A stretch of DNA of 40,155 bases from a virus (lineage: Duplodnaviria; Heunggongvirae; Uroviricota; Caudoviricetes), in the IMG/VR virus record IMGVR_UViG_2541047888_000009; one strand, 5' to 3'. A program made the translations under genes and the position numbers. Below the pieces are notes generated by a model. That model ran no database searches. It worked only from the letters and a program-made list of their open reading frames with translations, and was not told where the DNA came from. Below, piece by piece: positions 3,622 to 31,012 of the stretch. Numbering within the stretch: position 1 is the stretch's first letter; each line of letters begins with the position of its first letter.

Positions 3622-6396
3622 TTACACTCCTGATACTTCAATAGATAGTTGAATCTTATTTGGCATCTTGTTGCTTAAATATATGGTTGCAAAGTCAAAC
3701 GAAATATTTAAGTTATTTTCATCACCATCATTATCTGAAAGAACTCCGGTTTTCAATACAACATTTTGCTTATTAATTTCTTTTAAAGGAGAAAAATCAA
3801 TTGCCTCACCACGATGAATAAGAACACCAACTGCAATTACCCCATGAATATCAAGTATGTCGTGCATATCAAGGCGAACACATGGGACATATCCACCAAC
3901 AAGGATACTTGTAGATTTGTTGGCTTCAAGTGTTATTAGATATTTTCCGTCTGGTTGAACTATTGTTCCTGCTATTCCATCTGGCGTGTTGAACATACCG
4001 CAGTATCTGTATCCTGCTCCAACAGGAACAATTCTGTTACCGCCAAGATCATGGAAATTTCGAACAATTATTGCACCAGGAACTGATGAATAAACCATTA
4101 CTGCCTCTGTTTGCCCTGATACAGAGTCTGATGTTTCTGGGTTCGCCATGCATAAATTACCACCAAAATAAATATTTTGGATTAGAGGGGTGAGGCCATC
4201 ATTAACCTCAAAACGTAAAAAGCCCTTGAGAACAGTCCTTGCGGTATTATTCTTAATAACAACAGGAAGTTCTTTATAGTAAGAGTTTCTGTCTGTCTGT
4301 GCCAGAGTTGTTTCAATAAAAACAAAAGGTCTGTGATTACGTTGAGTTGCATTCACAGGTTTGTACCTCAAGTTGTATGGCAAAGACATCTCAGTAAAAC
4401 CATCAATATAATTACAGTTCTGAATCGTGAACCCACCACCACTATATCTTACAAAAAAAGGAGCCGGGCCGCTAAATCCCCTGGCGTTCATTCCATCATA
4501 CACTTCATTTAATCCGCGTATTACACCAGCATAATACAAATTGACTGAATTGCCGCCTGTAAAAGTTGTTTCGTATGATGGGCCGTGTCCACCGCAACAT
4601 GAATTTCTTGTATCGCCATCAGGGAAAAATTTAACTCCATCATATGCAGTTCCACCACCCATCATCGTTGGATTTATAATGTTATTATACAGTGATACCA
4701 TTTGAGTCCCGCTTACATCAAGCCCCCTCCTGCAAGCAAATGCTATCATATCCACGACTGTGCAATAGCTGCTATTGTATATTTCAACACCATAACCAGT
4801 GCCGTTTGTTAAATCATATGCACGGTTTGAGTATTCAATATATGGCTCTATTATTTTCGTTCTGTAGCATGACTCAAGAAAAATTCCAGTTTCTGAAAAG
4901 CCGATTAGTTTTATTCCTTCTATATGCATATCAACAGCGCCATCTATCACAAGACCACGGAACCCCAAATCACCAGGAGATGCGTTCTGCGTGACAGGTC
5001 TTTCAAAATTGAAATCACCGACAATTCTGCCGTAGCATGGTTTTCTTTTATATATATTTGCCTTTCTTGTGATTTTAAACACGTCTCCAACAGATGGTTT
5101 AAACGGGAATGGTCCCTGAGCATATTCAAATTTTGCTGTTTTAGTGTCGTAATCCCAATGAGTTATGTATCTTGATATTCCGGCGTTAGCTCCGGTGACA
5201 CCTGTTACTTTTACCTGATTGTATTGTTTTGTTAATGTTGCATCATTACCAAATGAGAATTCACCTCCGGATACAGATGCTGTTACGGTCGTTGAGTAAT
5301 CATTGCTCGCAGAGTAGAAAAAATAAAATGCACCTGATATCTCCGCTTTTTTTGTTGCATTATCAAAAGCAGTAACAACATGCATTTCACCTTCACAAGC
5401 CTGTCCTCTATTATCTGTCTGAATTAAGCGATTACCATGAATCATAATTATATCGCCTGCATCAAAAGAATATGCTGAGTTAATTGATATTGATGTGTCA
5501 CCAGGATTTATTGTTGAATTATAGTCAATTGGCGTGGCATCTCCACCTTCGAGTCTTATGAAATAATCATCAATCCAGTTTGGACCAAGAGGCTCTTTTG
5601 CGGTTGACTTTAAGACAACCTTGCCATCAGCTACCCAGTCATAGTTATAATTATCCCCGCCGCATTTTATGCGGCTAATCAAATACACACCAGAATCCCA
5701 CTTCAGGCGTTTTCCGTTAGATGCGCAGTAAATGATGGCATTTGTTATTGCGTCTGTATCGTCAGTAATGCCATCCCCTTTTGCACCAAAATCGCGAACA
5801 TTGACGATATCCCGCATCTTATCCTGGAACGTTCGATATACTGCCCCAAAACCATACTGAATAAACCAACCAAAACCACCAACAACCCCGGCGATTGCAG
5901 CATCGACATAATTACGCATTGAGCGATTATTTACAGCATCCTGCTCAAGTGATGGATCTGCAAGGTTAGAAATTCTGTTTTGCTTTGCATCGTAATATTT
6001 TGCAAGCAAAGATGGTTTCATCAATGCACGTCTGAACCACCCAAAACATCGCTGGATCAGCATCGTCAGGTAGTCAAATGCATCCTCATGAACTTCGGGG
6101 AAAAATTTTCCCTGATTGCGAAGATCAGTCTCCTGCACCACATCAAGCACACGCTCTATCGTGATTTTCCAGCCAGCAGCAAGCGGCGACGGAAGAACAA
6201 CAGAACCGCCACTATAAGTGCCCGCCCCAGTTACCGTATAACCGGTATCCAGAACCAATTCTGTTACGTTACCGTTCAGGTCAGACACCTGAACAACCAG
6301 GTCTGTTTTTTTGAAAATGCGGAAGGTATACGGAAATGATGTCGTAACGCCGTTACCTGTGTATTCGTTGTGGTCAACTTCGGTTGAGACCGTCAT
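3622..6396 (-). CDS. Tailspike protein: T7 gp17-like N-terminal adaptor domain fused to a pectate-lyase-like beta-helix (polysaccharide depolymerase type)
   Basis: N-terminus EYTGNGVTTSFPYTFRIFKKTDLVV resembles the T7 tail-fibre N-terminal domain; internal motif NVRDFGAKGDGITDDTDAITNAI is typical of pectate-lyase superfamily beta-helix tailspikes; GGAG RBS. Confidence 0.8.
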   Translation of the reverse strand: MTVSTEVDHNEYTGNGVTTSFPYTFRIFKKTDLVVQVSDLNGNVTELVLDTGYTVTGAGTYSGGSVVLPSPLAAGWKITIERVLDVVQETDLRNQGKFFPEVHEDAFDYLTMLIQRCFGWFRRALMKPSLLAKYYDAKQNRISNLADPSLEQDAVNNRSMRNYVDAAIAGVVGGFGWFIQYGFGAVYRTFQDKMRDIVNVRDFGAKGDGITDDTDAITNAIIYCASNGKRLKWDSGVYLISRIKCGGDNYNYDWVADGKVVLKSTAKEPLGPNWIDDYFIRLEGGDATPIDYNSTINPGDTSISINSAYSFDAGDIIMIHGNRLIQTDNRGQACEGEMHVVTAFDNATKKAEISGAFYFFYSASNDYSTTVTASVSGGEFSFGNDATLTKQYNQVKVTGVTGANAGISRYITHWDYDTKTAKFEYAQGPFPFKPSVGDVFKITRKANIYKRKPCYGRIVGDFNFERPVTQNASPGDLGFRGLVIDGAVDMHIEGIKLIGFSETGIFLESCYRTKIIEPYIEYSNRAYDLTNGTGYGVEIYNSSYCTVVDMIAFACRRGLDVSGTQMVSLYNNIINPTMMGGGTAYDGVKFFPDGDTRNSCCGGHGPSYETTFTGGNSVNLYYAGVIRGLNEVYDGMNARGFSGPAPFFVRYSGGGFTIQNCNYIDGFTEMSLPYNLRYKPVNATQRNHRPFVFIETTLAQTDRNSYYKELPVVIKNNTARTVLKGFLRFEVNDGLTPLIQNIYFGGNLCMANPETSDSVSGQTEAVMVYSSVPGAIIVRNFHDLGGNRIVPVGAGYRYCGMFNTPDGIAGTIVQPDGKYLITLEANKSTSILVGGYVPCVRLDMHDILDIHGVIAVGVLIHRGEAIDFSPLKEINKQNVVLKTGVLSDNDGDENNLNISFDFATIYLSNKMPNKIQLSIEVSGV

Positions 6397-23779: not shown

Positions 23780-23856
23780 GTGGCATTAGCTCAGTCGGAC
23801 AGAGCAACCGCCTTCTAAGCGGTTGGTCGCAGGTTCGAATCCTGCATGCCACGCCA
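23780..23856 (+). tRNA. tRNA-Arg (anticodon UCU, reads AGA)
   Basis: Full cloverleaf folded by hand: acceptor GTGGCAT/ATGCCAC, D-arm GCTC-AGTCGGACA-GAGC, anticodon arm ACCGC-CTTCTAA-GCGGT, T-arm GCAGG-TTCGAAT-CCTGC, discriminator G, encoded CCA. Confidence 0.85.
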
Positions 23857-26893: not shown

Positions 26894-27237
26894 ACTATTA
26901 ATTTCGTTTCATGCCAGCCTTTAGTCACCCAGCATTGCGAGTCACCATTACACGGGCATGAATTAACGGGAACTCTCTCGCCGCACTTACCGCAAAGTTT
27001 TCTGCTGATCGATTTTATACGCCCGCGCACACGTGCATCATCCTGGCGGATCAGCAGCGCGATGTACTCGGCCATTTCATAGGGATCGCGACCAGGGCGC
27101 CGGGCGGCGCAGTTCCGCGCCAGCATTTCCTGCTCCTGCTTATCCAGCACCAGTTCAATTTTGCGCTCACCGGCGGCGGACTGCCGAGCGCGCTGCGCGG
27201 CTTTGCGTTCTGCGGGGGATTTAGCCACGAATCGCAC
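26890..27237 (-). CDS. Cys-rich (zinc-ribbon-like) basic protein; possible late-gene regulator
   Basis: 115 aa; basic N-terminus (KAAQRARQSAAGERK) and cluster CGKCGERVPVNSCPCNGDSQC; last sizeable gene before the terminase operon. Confidence 0.5.
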   Translation of the reverse strand: MRFVAKSPAERKAAQRARQSAAGERKIELVLDKQEQEMLARNCAARRPGRDPYEMAEYIALLIRQDDARVRGRIKSISRKLCGKCGERVPVNSCPCNGDSQCWVTKGWHETKLIV

Positions 27238-27343
27238 TCCACGCCAGATTGATTAATGACTCCCAGGCAATATAAACCCGGATACCAGCAGCCAGGCCGA
27301 AACCAATCACCATGGCATAAAGCAGAGCATTGCACTTGTTCAT
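27221..27343 (-). CDS. Possible 40-aa single-TM peptide
   Basis: ATG overlapping the upstream stop (ATGA); MNKCNALLYAMVIGFGLAAGIRVYIAW is hydrophobic. Short, so weakly supported. Confidence 0.3.
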   Translation of the reverse strand: MNKCNALLYAMVIGFGLAAGIRVYIAWESLINLAWSAIRG

Positions 27344-28101
27344 CACTTCACCTCCTGCGGCGGTTCCGGTAGCGGCATCCAGAACAAGGCGTTCCCTAAC
27401 CACGATAAAGTGCCGTCGCTCAACTCCACGTATTCCCCTTGTACCTGTCCTGCCATATACTCGCCGTGCTTTGAATAAATTAAAATCCAATCATCTTGAG
27501 CGGGCATTCGCTCACTACAGCTTATCCAACCATCCGGAGTTACCGGAGAGTTGCCAGCCTGAACAGTAGGCATATCAGGACCTTTGCGAATCGCCCTGGC
27601 AAGATCGATTGGGTCGTCGTACAACCAGTCACCTGTTTGCGGATGATTGGCTTCTGCCAATTGTGCAGCCCACTCCAGGCCGTCTTTGTGTCCTTGCAGA
27701 TAGTCCAGCGGTAACTCATCACTATTACTTACAGGTTCGGCCTGAAGCATGGCGGCGCGATAGGCGTTCCAGCCGACAGCTTTTCCGTGTTCAAACGCGC
27801 TGTCAAAGTCATCATCAATTTCCATCGCAGCGGGCACAGATACCGGCGCTGGCGGGGCGGTGTAAAGCGGCGTTACTTCTCGCAGCGGGTCGGCATAAGC
27901 ATTGCCACTATCGAAGCTGACGTTGTTTTTTGCCCCGCCTCCTGACAGCAACCACGCCACCGGCTCTGCTTCCAGCGATGTCAGCGCAATCCGCGCCAGT
28001 TCTTCCGCTTCTTCTGCTGGCAGTACAACGTTGCTACCAGGTCCGTATGTTTCGCGCCACTGCTTGATTGTCAGTAGTCGCTCTTTGGTAATAGTGATCA
28101 T
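27343..28101 (-). CDS. Hypothetical protein with DUF551-like C-terminal domain
   Basis: C-terminal segment DGWISCSERMPAQDDWILIY...WMPLPEPP resembles the DUF551 domain common in lambdoid early regions. Confidence 0.6.
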   Translation of the reverse strand: MITITKERLLTIKQWRETYGPGSNVVLPAEEAEELARIALTSLEAEPVAWLLSGGGAKNNVSFDSGNAYADPLREVTPLYTAPPAPVSVPAAMEIDDDFDSAFEHGKAVGWNAYRAAMLQAEPVSNSDELPLDYLQGHKDGLEWAAQLAEANHPQTGDWLYDDPIDLARAIRKGPDMPTVQAGNSPVTPDGWISCSERMPAQDDWILIYSKHGEYMAGQVQGEYVELSDGTLSWLGNALFWMPLPEPPQEVK

Positions 28102-28613
28102 GCCGCGTTTCCTTCTTTCTTATTAACAATTACACCGTCATATATTTCATTAAGGTGCCCTCTCAACTCCATGCGCCTTAATGCAGATAACATGTAATCG
28201 CATTCAACCTGCTTATTCCCAATAAAAGGTTTATCTTCAGGGTTACCCCAACAGCAATTCCCCTTGGGCCATCCATGTACTTTCCGTACTCTTCCGTTAA
28301 CAACGTGAAGTAATCCCCAGCCGGGAGGTAAATCCTCAACTGAAATAATTCCCGGCTCACTAATAAAGAATCGCCAGTCGCCCATTCCAAGAGATGGATT
28401 TTTACGAAAACGCTTTTTTCTATCTGCCAACAAGTCAGCACGAGAACACTTCGCCTCTATCAGGCATGATGCTGAATTTCTGAACCCCATAGCATCTGGC
28501 TGTTCTCCGGTACTGGTTACAGCTATAAAGCGGTCATGAAAACAAACCTTGAACCCGTTGCGCTTAAGGAACTTATACGCAATCTGACAGAGTTCGCGGT
28601 GTGTTAACGCCAT
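28098..28613 (-). CDS. Hypothetical protein with a possible PD-(D/E)xK nuclease-like motif
   Basis: Start at ATG 28613 with AAGGAG RBS; motif ...GEQPD...CLIEAKCS... fits a PD-ExK arrangement. Speculative. Confidence 0.5.
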   Translation of the reverse strand: MALTHRELCQIAYKFLKRNGFKVCFHDRFIAVTSTGEQPDAMGFRNSASCLIEAKCSRADLLADRKKRFRKNPSLGMGDWRFFISEPGIISVEDLPPGWGLLHVVNGRVRKVHGWPKGNCCWGNPEDKPFIGNKQVECDYMLSALRRMELRGHLNEIYDGVIVNKKEGNAA

Positions 28614-28614
28614 A

Positions 28615-28803
28615 TCACTCTCCTTTAGTGCGCAAGTGGTTTTTCCAGCGGTTTTGCGCCGCGCTGGGCTTTTTGCAAAAACCACAATCCATCATCCCGT
28701 AATATTTCATCAACCCCATCCGTCGGTTGCTGAGTCTCACCCACTGCCAGACGCCAGGAGCGTTTCTACGAACTAACAGAATCTTTGCTTTACGGTTTTT
28801 CAT
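28615..28803 (-). CDS. Small basic protein (62 aa), paralog B of a tandem pair
   Basis: Begins MKNRKAKILLVRR; start overlaps the upstream stop (ATGA); shares N-terminal heptapeptide and about 20 nt of start-region DNA with 28800..28976. Confidence 0.4.
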   Translation of the reverse strand: MKNRKAKILLVRRNAPGVWQWVRLSNRRMGLMKYYGMMDCGFCKKPSAAQNRWKNHLRTKGE

Positions 28804-28976
28804 CTTACAGCGTACCCTTTCTTCCGCCTGTTCTGTGACGCAGTAGGCTTACGCTTTGCGGCAAAAGCCACCTGACCAAATGGATGGAGTACCGCTATCT
28901 TATGGTTGCTAATAACCAGCTCCACCACACGCACAGGTCGCTGTAAAAAAAGTCGTTTTGCCTTACGGTTTTTCAT
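28800..28976 (-). CDS. Small basic protein (58 aa), paralog A of a tandem pair
   Basis: Hand translation: MKNRKAKRLFLQRPVRVVELVISNHKIAVLHPFGQVAFAAKRKPTASQNRRKKGYAVR; ATGA overlaps at both ends. Not in the supplied ORF track (under its length cutoff). Confidence 0.4.
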   Translation of the reverse strand: MKNRKAKRLFLQRPVRVVELVISNHKIAVLHPFGQVAFAAKRKPTASQNRRKKGYAVR

Positions 28977-29149
28977 CGCTTTGCTCTCCTGCGTCTCTTT
29001 GCTGCTCGTCGTGCCGCTGCAATACCGGTATGGCGGCGCTTTGGTGACGGGATGATGTTGTCAGCCATCAGTACATGTGGCTTTGCAATTAGCGCAGAAG
29101 CCCAAAAACGAGTCGGGTACGGTAACAAGCCGATACATGCCACACGCAT
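28973..29149 (-). CDS. Small protein (58 aa) with an extremely basic C-terminus
   Basis: Hand translation: MRVACIGLLPYPTRFWASALIAKPHVLMADNIIPSPKRRHTGIAAARRAAKRRRRAKR; GGAGG RBS; TAATG overlap with the upstream stop. Confidence 0.35.
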   Translation of the reverse strand: MRVACIGLLPYPTRFWASALIAKPHVLMADNIIPSPKRRHTGIAAARRAAKRRRRAKR

Positions 29150-29742
29150 TACTCACCTCCTTTGATGCGAATGCCAGCGGTGCGTGGCACATTAACTTCC
29201 ACGATGCGCACAGTTGGTTTGTACATCTCAATCGCTGTCAGCCAGTCAGCGCCAGTCATGCGCTTTTCTGCATCGCCATTAGTCCAATTAACCGGTACAC
29301 CAATAGCCTTCATCGCGATTTCTATTTCCCCGGCAATGGCGCTTTTTCCGCAACCAGTAAAACCAGATACAACGACCAGAACTTCACCTTTGGCTGGTTT
29401 TATTTCCCGCGCTTCCAGTTCTGCTATGCGCTTACTTCCATCCGAGATAACACCTTCGTAATACTCACGCTGCTCGTTGAGTTTTGATTTTGTCTCCTCA
29501 AGCTCAACTCTCAGCTTCCCTACCGTTAGCGCAATATCCTCGTTCTCCTGGTCGCGGCGTTTGATGTATTGCTGGTTTCTTTCCAGTTCATCCAGCAGTG
29601 CCAGCGCGATATCTGGCGAAAAGTGCTTCATAAAATCGTTAAGCGCATTAATTCGCTGATCGAAGGGCATTACAGGTGCTTCACCAGCAATTTTTGTTTT
29701 TTCAGCGATTTCACGAAGCTTTTGATAATCAATCTTGCTCAC
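29149..29742 (-). CDS. Ea22-like coiled-coil protein
   Basis: N-terminus MSKIDYQKLREIAEK and a long coiled-coil region, as in lambdoid ead/Ea22 proteins. Confidence 0.55.
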   Translation of the reverse strand: MSKIDYQKLREIAEKTKIAGEAPVMPFDQRINALNDFMKHFSPDIALALLDELERNQQYIKRRDQENEDIALTVGKLRVELEETKSKLNEQREYYEGVISDGSKRIAELEAREIKPAKGEVLVVVSGFTGCGKSAIAGEIEIAMKAIGVPVNWTNGDAEKRMTGADWLTAIEMYKPTVRIVEVNVPRTAGIRIKGGE

Positions 29743-30494
29743 TGGTTGCCTCCTTTGCGAAGCTGGGCAGCAAAGTCAACTAACCACTCAGTCATTTCAA
29801 CCTTCCCTACCAGGTCTGAACCAGGGTGCATACAGCAATCACTCTGCGCCGCTTTGAAATCCTTATACTCATATTCTTGGGCCACCAGATTTTTTGCAGC
29901 TTCTATAGCAGCATCCACGCCCTGCGCCCGCACTTCAGCCAGGAAAGCATCGGTGGCTGGGATTTCGACATTAGGTCGAAGCTCATAATCACAAACTCTT
30001 TCAATCCATGGTGATACTCTGTCGCATTTCCTCTTCTTGCGTTCACCGACCTTGGTTGCCTGCTGAATAATTACCCCCCAGCAAATGCTTTCGACCTCTT
30101 CGCTCCATCCATCGCAAGCATCGCCTCTATAGTCGTCAATTGCAGCCTCAGCAGCAGCGATAGCCTCCTCAGCAGTTTTGTGACACTCGAAACTAAATTC
30201 AGAGCCATATGAGAAATACATAGCCCCGGCCTTCAGCGCCGCATTCTCAGCCGCCAGCGCCGAAAACTTCTCGTGTGCCAACTTAACAGCCGAATCAGCC
30301 TGCTTAATTGACTCAATCGCTTTCTGCTGGTCTTCGGCCAGCGCATTAGCACGCGCCAGTTGCACTTCCAGTTGCGTTGCCAAATCGCTGATCAGCTTTG
30401 CCACACTACGCATATCAACGGCACCACATTCTGCTTTCAGTTCCGAAGCCATCTCATGCCCGGCGGCAACTAACCCTTTGATATTACTTTCCAT
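29739..30494 (-). CDS. Ea22-like protein
   Basis: Coiled-coil N-terminal half plus Cys-containing C-terminal half; tandem with the preceding Ea22-like gene. Confidence 0.55.
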   Translation of the reverse strand: MESNIKGLVAAGHEMASELKAECGAVDMRSVAKLISDLATQLEVQLARANALAEDQQKAIESIKQADSAVKLAHEKFSALAAENAALKAGAMYFSYGSEFSFECHKTAEEAIAAAEAAIDDYRGDACDGWSEEVESICWGVIIQQATKVGERKKRKCDRVSPWIERVCDYELRPNVEIPATDAFLAEVRAQGVDAAIEAAKNLVAQEYEYKDFKAAQSDCCMHPGSDLVGKVEMTEWLVDFAAQLRKGGNQ

Positions 30495-30555
30495 CTTTAC
30501 CCTCGCTTATCCACATAACTTATTGATTACATTGATAACTAAAAAGATCGTCGAT

Positions 30556-30900
30556 TCAGAACTCTTCGATGTTCCAGCCACCACCTGCTTTCTTTGGTTT
30601 AACCGTTACCCCGATGATTCGGAACGGATACTGATCTGCGGCGACTTTGGTTTTCACCCTGGCGTCGTCGGTCCAGAAACCTTTCACTTCGTGCAGTTCC
30701 ATCTCTCCGGTGGCGAGCATCACAGCGAAATCGGGCGTATAGAACGTGTTGTCAGCTAACCGCAACTTGATACCCTCGAATCGATACCAGGCGATTTCCC
30801 CTGCACGTTTACGCTGCTCAAGGTGCTGGCAATACGCAGATTCTGTTTTGTTCATCTGGCCTGTTTTGAGTCGACCAAGAGCCTGTATCTGTTTTCTCAT
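30556..30900 (-). CDS. DUF1064-like phage protein
   Basis: 114 aa; pattern SKxEAxYxxxLE...GEIxxWxFE...YTPDFxV...ExHEVKG matches recalled DUF1064 sequences. Confidence 0.55.
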   Translation of the reverse strand: MRKQIQALGRLKTGQMNKTESAYCQHLEQRKRAGEIAWYRFEGIKLRLADNTFYTPDFAVMLATGEMELHEVKGFWTDDARVKTKVAADQYPFRIIGVTVKPKKAGGGWNIEEF

Positions 30901-30903
30901 GAT

Positions 30904-30980
30904 TTACCTCTAAGGTAATTAAAAACCACATAAGACACGAAATCAATAGAGTTTAGAATGTTTTGTTACCTGATAGGTAA
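30904..30980 (-). promoter_or_regulatory. Internal promoter flanked by two operator palindromes (30904..30918 TTACCTCTAAGGTAA; 30966..30980 TTACCTGATAGGTAA)
   Basis: On the minus strand: -35 TTGATT, 17-bp spacer, -10 TTTAAT, with one operator over the -10/+1 and one upstream of the -35. Confidence 0.5.
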
Positions 30981-30992
30981 TTATTGAGACGT

Positions 30993-31012
30993 AAAAAAAT
31001 GCGCTATCGCGC
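30993..31012 (-). terminator. Terminator-like hairpin after the P-like gene
   Basis: Minus strand GCGCGATAGCGC hairpin followed by TTTTTTT. Confidence 0.45.

Follow-up and report, generated by a model that had tools for sequence, protein, structure and literature searches.

Small chained genes for basic proteins downstream of an Ea22-like gene in a phiV10-like temperate phage

Three overlapping genes and their protein families

IMG/VR virus record IMGVR_UViG_2541047888_000009, a stretch of 40,155 nucleotides (nt) referred to here as the window, represents a temperate podophage of the phiV10/epsilon15 type (genus Uetakevirus), with phiv142-3 and TL-2011b as its best full-length relatives. The subject of this analysis is the 535-bp region at positions 28615-29149, which carries three small, overlapping open reading frames (ORFs), ORF1, ORF2 and ORF3. 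An earlier note, made from the letters of the sequence alone, had described them as tandem, translationally coupled and rich in arginine and lysine, with two of them being paralogs that share the N-terminus MKNRKAK. The sequence bore this description out: three tandem minus-strand ORFs with ATG starts encode proteins of 58, 58 and 62 amino acids (aa), in which Lys and Arg make up 26-28% of residues, the net charge is +14 to +15 and the isoelectric point (pI) lies between 11.3 and 12.0, and ORF1 ends in RRAAKRRRRAKR. The overlaps are of the two kinds listed in the note, with ATGA joining ORF1 to ORF2 and ORF2 to ORF3, and TAATG joining the upstream Ea22-like gene to ORF1. The near-identity reported for the 5' ends of ORF2 and ORF3 amounts to the same 20 nt except for one synonymous A/G difference. 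The features of the region are as follows.

29153..29162, minus strand: Shine-Dalgarno sequence of ORF1, AAGGAGGTGA, 3 nt upstream of the ATG; kept in related loci, some of which have a GTG start
28973..29149, minus strand: ORF1, 58 aa, pI 12.0; proline/aromatic-rich N-terminal half and predicted Arg-rich C-terminal helix TGIAAARRAAKRRRRAKR; phrog_13831
28986..28990, minus strand: Shine-Dalgarno sequence of ORF2, AGGAG, inside the Arg-rich C-terminal codons of ORF1
28800..28976, minus strand: ORF2, 58 aa, pI 12.0; phrog_1380, body subtype B; "internal" tail …QNRRKKGYAVR, with an ATGA overlap with the next copy
28957..28977, minus strand: copy 1 of a 21-nt direct repeat found by repeat search, at the 5' end of ORF2, covering ATGAAAAACCGTAAGGCAAA
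28784..28804, minus strand: copy 2 of the repeat, at the 5' end of ORF3, 95% identical and 173 nt from copy 1
28615..28803, minus strand: ORF3, 62 aa, pI 11.3; phrog_1380, body subtype A; "terminal" tail …QNRWKNHLRTKGE; RefSeq WP_000797279.1, "hypothetical protein"
28611..28640, minus strand: constant junction AAAAACCACTTGCGCACTAAAGGAGAGTGAtATG, comprising the last ORF3 codons, an AAGGAG Shine-Dalgarno sequence (28620-28625), the TGA stop, one base and the downstream ATG

Good Shine-Dalgarno sequences precede ORF1, ORF2 and the next gene downstream, ORF4, while that of ORF3 is weak. Because of this weak site and the ATGA overlap shared with ORF2, translation of ORF3 probably depends on coupling to ORF2.

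The proteins fall into two families. ORF2 and ORF3 both match phrog_1380 (6.5e-23, residues 1-58 on profile positions 1-60 of 62, and 1e-40, residues 1-62 on positions 1-62 of 62, respectively), and their paralogy, proposed in the earlier note, is supported by a direct BLASTP alignment (37% identity over 54 aa, E=5e-10). Synonymous divergence (dS) between them is saturated and the ratio of nonsynonymous to synonymous substitution rates (dN/dS) is ~0.28; they are therefore old paralogs and not the product of a recent duplication. ORF1 matches phrog_13831 over its full length (2.2e-41, residues 1-58 on positions 1-58 of 58), and its membership as a third paralog was excluded, with an hhalign probability of 1.8% against the ORF2/ORF3 family. 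The latter, referred to below as the MKNRKAK family, is defined by three motifs derived here, namely M-K-N-R-K-A-K-x-L-L at the N-terminus, [RK]-[ILV]-S-N-[RH]-[RK] in the centre and K-P-S-A-A-Q-N-R-W-K-N-H near the C-terminus. The segments between the motifs are hypervariable, and at least seven body subtypes were distinguished. In the forms M-K-N-R-K-A-K-x-L, [RK]-[ILV]-S-N-[RH]-[RK] and K-x-[ST]-A-[AS]-Q-N-R, all three are carried by both ORF2 and ORF3. A marginal zf-C2H2_jaz match of ORF3 (13.3 bits against a 22.6-bit cut-off, E=0.096), with a single His after the CxxC, was rejected because the Cys/His ligand positions are not conserved in the family and the Cys columns are absent from ORF2.

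The MKNRKAK family is narrow in its distribution. An exhaustive search of 1.84 billion representative proteins with a hidden Markov model (HMM) returned 48 clusters of the MKNRKAK family only, and no annotated distant relative was found among them; one 264-aa repetitive match (P0166) looks spurious. Wherever the source names an organism, the host is Escherichia or Salmonella, and the same holds for ORF1, with 82 homologous clusters and E. coli and E. albertii as the Escherichia species named. A protein-pattern scan of GTDB representative genomes confirmed no family member, and the matches of a DNA-pattern scan of the same genomes were nearly all chance N-terminal matches in unrelated proteins. 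The one exception is a 228-bp contig assigned to Acinetobacter idrijaensis (JQCU01000388.1), probably contamination from an E. coli phage, which holds two tandem B-type copies whose protein is identical to ORF2, so that B-B arrays exist. The exact N-terminus MKNRKAK also opens an apparent bS18 (L310) and an apparent bL35 (L316) in unrelated bacteria, as judged by eye from the sequences; basic N-terminal tails of this kind are typical of rRNA-binding proteins and are not evidence of homology.

To assess coding, near-identical alleles were taken from 80 viral contigs and their variant sites were counted in each frame. The named frames hold 27 synonymous and 25 nonsynonymous variant sites (P=1.3e-5 against a neutral expectation of 24% synonymous). 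The other two frames display no synonymous excess, with synonymous to nonsynonymous counts of 11:41 in the second and 5:47 in the third. In the ORF2/ORF3 family, for which 86 distinct DNA sequences were compared, the invariant residues are written with several codons: Ser26 as AGC or AGT, Asn27 as AAC (54) or AAT (32), and Arg53 as CGC, AGG or AGA, and Gly37 is encoded by GGG (35), GGA (29) or GGT (16). The proportions of synonymous (pS) and nonsynonymous (pN) differences are 0.44 and 0.047 in the N-terminal motif, 0.70 and 0.16 in the C-terminal motif, and 0.76 and 0.48 in the hypervariable core. ORF1 is less constrained than the ORF2/ORF3 family, with a dN/dS of 0.43-0.62 against alleles of 62-67% identity; its frame is kept through 21-nt and 3-nt indels, and it starts with ATG or GTG behind a strong Shine-Dalgarno sequence. 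The earlier note had named absent conservation of the frames in related genomes as the finding that would speak against it; in related phages the frames are conserved. Together, these patterns of variation show ORF1, ORF2 and ORF3 to be real protein-coding genes under purifying selection.

In one frameshifted ORF1 variant (P0125, P0127), the Arg-rich tail is replaced by …HQSAAIPVLHRHDEQQRNAGEQNDEKP and the frame ends within the first codons of the next gene.

Array grammar, tails and dual-coded junctions

To describe how the genes are arranged, 111 distinct genomic contexts were compared, in which the MKNRKAK family occurs in arrays of one to three copies. Position in the array is strictly tied to the C-terminal tail. 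Non-terminal chained copies all end in …QNRRKKGYAVR (r-tail) with an ATGA overlap, terminal copies all end in …QNRWKNHLRTKGE (w-tail), and the 111 contexts hold no exception. One body subtype can bear either tail (Ar60 and Aw62 are an example), so recombination joins bodies to tails inside the conserved K-P-S-A-A-Q-N-R stretch. The linkage with ORF1 is equally strict in one direction: in 57 of 57 contexts an ATGA overlap leads from ORF1 into an MKNRKAK copy, and this extends to divergent phages whose lysis genes lie just downstream of the pair. Of 57 related contexts, 39 share the TAATG junction upstream of ORF1. About one context in three has the family but no ORF1, and the leader ACGCAGGAGAGCAAAGCGATG lies ahead of the family in loci with and without ORF1 alike.

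The tail of the last copy is followed by a constant junction, AAAGGAGAGTGAtATGGC, which is identical before at least five unrelated downstream genes. The genes found behind it (loci L003-L082) are the 171-aa nuclease-like ORF, a 69-aa Cys-rich ORF (MAIAASYTMHLYCDC…), a DUF4014 protein and two others. The mosaic breakpoint at AAAGGAGAGTGAtATGGC falls exactly on the start codon, a clear case of exchange at a conserved gene boundary. In contrast to the internal Gly37, the last four codons are almost without synonymous variation (ACT in 55 of 55 Thr codons and GGA in 57 of 58 Gly codons), because they form the Shine-Dalgarno sequence of the next gene. The same arrangement recurs along the chain, with AGGAG inside the end of ORF1, AAGGAGGTGA inside the end of the Ea22-like gene and the Shine-Dalgarno sequence of the terminal-tail junction; the C-termini of the chained genes are thus dual-coded. 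Both the ATGA overlaps and the position-dependent C-terminal tail are explained in this way, since the last codons also encode the Shine-Dalgarno sequence or the start of the next gene.

The 57-nt stretch at the 3' end of ORF3, which comprises …AAQNRWKNHLRTKGE and the ribosome-binding site, also occurs alone, at 91-98% identity, on unrelated bodies in other phages. Examples are found in Stx2a phages near 5174-5230, in Salmonella phage Sasha at 51179-51231 and in protein P0179. The tail plus junction therefore behaves as a portable module.

Genomic setting, distribution and annotation

ORF1-ORF3 lie in an accessory stretch of the early-right operon, between the replication and the packaging genes. 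The gene order is DnaT-like, P-like, DUF1064, a 251-aa ORF, Ea22-like, ORF1, ORF2, ORF3, ORF4, EaA/DUF551, a 115-aa ORF and the terminase genes. The earlier note's term "nin-like region" is a fair positional description, as the genes follow the DnaT-like, P-like and DUF1064 replication genes and precede the terminase genes. The flanking features are as follows.

33266-33238: PR-like promoter match
30228-30200: weak terminator-like site, the sole one from the replication genes to the small terminase gene
29149..29742, minus strand: Ea22-like gene, 197 aa; Pfam Ead_Ea22, 6.9e-28; its last codons (…IKGGE) hold the ORF1 Shine-Dalgarno sequence and its TAA stop overlaps the ORF1 ATG
28098..28613, minus strand: ORF4, 171 aa, in a variable downstream slot; matches phrog_631 and phrog_9263; context, outside the conserved module

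The C-terminal half of the Ea22-like protein carries a Walker-A-like motif, VVVSGFTGCGKSAIAG, with weak Pfam matches to APS_kinase and AAA_16 at residues 117-158, which suggests that a small P-loop domain is fused to the Ead/Ea22 coiled coil. ORF4 found no match in Pfam, NCBIfam or PDB sequences, and PADLOC defence profiles matched none of ORF1, ORF2, ORF3 and ORF4. ORF4 does contain a PD…(I)EAK motif (…EQPDAMGF…CLIEAKCS…) and matches phrog_5429, "DNA repair protein", weakly; the motif suggests a PD-(D/E)xK nuclease fold. On plasmid p1303_95, which is 99.9% identical to the window over a 1.8-kb query, the Prokaryotic Genome Annotation Pipeline (PGAP) calls the ORF4 gene a frameshifted pseudogene; the gene is intact in the window. 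One of the two ORF4 families, phrog_9263 (230 aa), consists of an ORF3-type N-terminus fused to an ORF4-type protein. Given this fusion, and an ORF4 frame that is open upstream to 28685, a programmed frameshift from ORF3 into ORF4 was considered, and no suitable +1 slippery site was seen. P0177, the only fused entry examined, reads as a simple frameshift mutant. A tRNA-Arg gene with anticodon TCT, which reads AGA, lies at 23780-23856 on the plus strand, upstream of the large terminase gene; the structural and packaging genes on either side of it lie on the other strand. AGA and AGG codons occur several times in the three Arg-rich ORFs.

To survey the distribution of the locus, the 535-bp region was used as a megablast query, which reports close DNA matches. 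Such a match is present in 602 of 5426 complete Escherichia coli genomes (11%, or about one in nine), 125 of which hold all three ORFs, and the matches occupy 418 chromosomal and 297 plasmid places. A further 139 phage records matched, among them 933W, VT2-Sakai, Stx2 phages I and II, TL-2011b/c, RCS47 and P1-like genomes.

Annotation of the locus is uneven. The 535 bases are 100% identical on plasmid p1303_95, where PGAP annotates ORF3 (WP_000797279.1) only; in the 933W record the ORF1 homolog has no annotation, and the ORF3 homolog, entered as L0068, is lengthened to 95 aa; in phiV10, p49-p51 are listed as hypothetical proteins. The remark in the earlier note that such ORFs are easily missed is thus well illustrated by ORF1 and ORF2 on p1303_95 and by the ORF1 homolog in 933W. 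Literature searches on the accession numbers and on L0068 returned nothing relevant.

Possible function and comparison with known systems

We consider it probable, with a fair degree of confidence, that the locus is a conserved accessory early module of polycations that bind nucleic acid and modulate host physiology. The conserved mini-module runs from the Ea22-like gene through ORF1 into a chained array of one to three MKNRKAK copies; its proteins would be made early, from the long early transcript and in roughly coupled amounts. They would be non-essential accessory polycations, with a charge of +14 to +15 packed into ~60 residues. Most likely they attach to nucleic acid, with host RNA or the ribosome a more plausible target than a specific operator on DNA, and the binding would modulate host physiology during infection or induction. 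Judged from the charge and the conserved basic motifs, nucleic-acid binding is the most likely activity. The earlier note had raised nucleic-acid binding or host takeover as possibilities; this putative role draws on the extreme basic charge and the predicted Arg-rich helix, with a weak similarity to the ribosome-associated protein Sra as a further hint.

Several observations weigh against this interpretation. A high positive charge alone is no proof of nucleic-acid binding. No Pfam, NCBIfam or PADLOC family was matched by ORF1-ORF3 above cut-off, and a search of PDB sequences with the MKNRKAK-family profile gave no match at E<=10. AlphaFold2 modeling was of low confidence for both proteins modeled, with a predicted local distance difference test (pLDDT) score of 60.5 for ORF3 (three short strands and a C-terminal helix) and of 61.9 for ORF1 (Arg-rich helix 40-57); when the ORF3 model was compared with PDB structures by Foldseek, the top match had E=1.5, too poor to carry meaning, and nothing came up at E<1. 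The ORF1 variant P0127, which lacks the Arg-rich tail, is found on 95 contigs, including O111:H8 chromosomes, and is common in resident prophages; it may be a product of decay in such prophages or else an alternative C-terminus that is tolerated. In the closest whole-genome relative, phiv142-3, a single 192-nt ORF, family-sized by its length, lies between the Ea22-like and Eaa genes. The block is therefore accessory, and none of the three ORFs is essential.

An alternative that we regard as unlikely is that the proteins regulate the phage life cycle or host defence by acting on DNA or on other proteins (as lysis-lysogeny modulators, anti-defence or host-takeover factors), the hypervariable core then reflecting an arms race with a host target. 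Genomic position speaks in its favour. In the Shiga toxin (Stx) phage 933W, the module lies in the exo-xis region directly after ea22 (Ea22-like L0069), and two papers describe effects on the lysis-lysogeny decision of the exo-xis region as a block and of several of its genes (PMC8614690; PMC7093339). The combination of at least seven body subtypes with one to three copies per array is a pattern typical of host-interacting accessory genes, and the genes appear to be early-expressed as well as non-essential. However, no PADLOC or regulator-family match was obtained for ORF1-ORF3, the low-confidence ORF1 and ORF3 models contain no helix-turn-helix or other DNA-binding fold, and the core has dN below dS, not positive selection, albeit at saturation. 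The module also has no fixed partner gene other than ORF1.

More doubtful still is the proposal that ORF2 and ORF3 are homologous or convergent counterparts of Sra (RpsV), an enterobacterial stationary-phase protein associated with the 30S subunit, and that early in infection they bind this subunit and so change the translation of the host or the stability of its ribosomes. E. coli Sra is a basic protein of 45 aa, and the sequence used here scores 108 bits on PF08136. Sra is a tight binder of the 30S subunit that lacks an assigned function (PMC10502375); a recent preprint proposes a likely de novo origin for it within Enterobacteriaceae (bioRxiv 10.1101/2025.11.04.686544). Both families are small and very basic and, wherever the sources name an organism, come from enterobacteria and their phages. 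They share the aligned motifs NR[KQ]A[KR]x[IL]L, [KR]ISN[QR][RK]vV and RK[PR]xA. Profile-profile comparison of the MKNRKAK family with Sra by hhalign, over the conserved N-terminal motifs, gave P=8-9e-4 at a probability of 22-25%. The real score of 21.0 was reached by 0 of 600 column-shuffled Sra profiles (mean 9.5, standard deviation 2.2, maximum 20.0) and by 1 of 500 sequence shuffles. Scored with the family HMM, Sra proteins outrank every one of the 1017 true basic six-frame decoys; the lone higher scorer among the 1018 in total is a fragment of the family itself.

Against these similarities stand a signal of only ~14 bits and an alignment that requires an 8-residue gap (an insertion in the phage proteins). 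The most conserved motif of the family, AAQNRWKNH, is without a counterpart in Sra. Pfam SRA_like (PF08136; gathering threshold 25 bits) matched 0 of 24 family members, ORF2 and ORF3 included, even at E<=10. When the Sra HMM and Sra-profile hhalign were run against the six-frame ORFs of the window, ORF2 and ORF3 ranked 66th and 84th of 868. Sra was, moreover, picked post hoc among about ten small basic proteins, and the P-values need to be corrected by a factor of roughly ten. The PDB copy searched held no structure of Sra with which contacts could be compared. Because the reverse searches miss ORF2 and ORF3, the link stays a lead only, and the two proteins were not filed as members of the Sra family; the similarity of their N-terminal half is short and robust to composition, and any kinship is putative. 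The corresponding evolutionary proposal, in which the MKNRKAK proteins are phage-borne relatives of Sra that arose with it from a shared origin by domestication or capture, and in which phages carry from one to three diversified copies of a polycation that binds ribosomes, so as to manipulate those of the host or to protect them early in infection, is in our view just as doubtful. If true, the resemblance would give these genes a testable function and would bear on the open role and origin of Sra.

It is highly improbable that the ORFs are not functional proteins, their ends serving as DNA-level recombination linkers or ribosome-binding sites at mosaic boundaries, or as an RNA element, with incidental frames: the portable 57-nt end of ORF3 before unrelated genes, the last four codons fixed at the nucleotide level as a downstream Shine-Dalgarno sequence, the recombining bodies and tails and a few double-frameshifted or fused database entries (P0054, P0060, P0177) speak for such a reading, but the synonymous excess is confined to the named frames, invariant amino acids are written with differing codons, including CGC versus AGG/AGA, indels are in frame, and Rfam returned nothing at E<=1 for 28615-29149 (the wider interval 27000-31000 gave only a sub-threshold snoR12 at 30904-30980). 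As pN in the conserved motifs is far below pS (pS 0.44-0.70), the ends are old and protein-constrained and were not recently homogenised; given the frame-specific selection, the linker idea accounts for no more than the last four to six codons and the mosaic joints and does not explain the genes themselves.

The finding is real and was correctly described by the earlier note, but it belongs to the ordinary accessory "dark matter" of phages, and both families had already been catalogued. Three results are new: all three ORFs are shown to be under frame-specific selection, the motifs and the array/tail grammar of the MKNRKAK family are defined, and ORF1 proves to be strictly linked to that family. 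The locus of the family so defined has close DNA matches in about one in nine complete E. coli genomes, and also in Shiga-toxin phages and in plasmids of the P1 type. Small accessory early genes of this sort are often skipped by annotation pipelines; ORF1 and ORF2, whose identical copies are unannotated in RefSeq, merit annotation. The locus is also a concrete case of chained genes whose C-termini are shaped where the demands of coding overlap with those of a ribosome-binding site.

Among catalogued sequences, the closest counterparts are the phrog_1380 and phrog_13831 examples phiV10 p49-p51, 933W L0068 and WP_000797279.1, which are full-length matches and share the neighbours of the locus, with an Ea22-like gene upstream and EaA/DUF551 downstream. 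Both families are catalogued as "unknown function", with no function attached. A looser likeness connects the locus with the lambda/Stx exo-xis genes (orf60a, orf63, orf61, orf73, ea8.5 and orf55) and the lambda nin genes, which are also short, early, non-essential, packed or overlapping ORFs with mosaic boundaries. Position adds to this likeness: the homologous module follows directly after ea22 in 933W, and in this phiV10-like phage ORF1-ORF3 come after the replication genes. No sequence relationship to ORF1-ORF3 accompanies it, as none of the Pfam families for NinB-H, Orf60a/61/63/73 and Ea8.5 reaches its cut-off for these proteins, and the likeness is positional only. Structures have been predicted for six exo-xis proteins, several of which have reported phenotypes (PMC8614690). 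Genes of the ORF1-ORF3 type fall into the "variable set of downstream genes" of the same paper, which are uncharacterised.

Sra differs from the phage proteins in its setting, since the latter are phage-encoded, belong to an early operon and occur in tandem copies. Small basic phage proteins that bind the ribosome or RNA include the phage homologs of bS21 and the arginine-rich motif of lambda N. No homology to these turned up, nor was an RNA target of the boxB-hairpin kind identified, in an analysis that made no test aimed at this comparison. The likeness of ORF1-ORF3 to these is one of concept, that of a short phage polycation acting on host RNA, and is joined in ORF1 by a predicted Arg-rich C-terminal helix.

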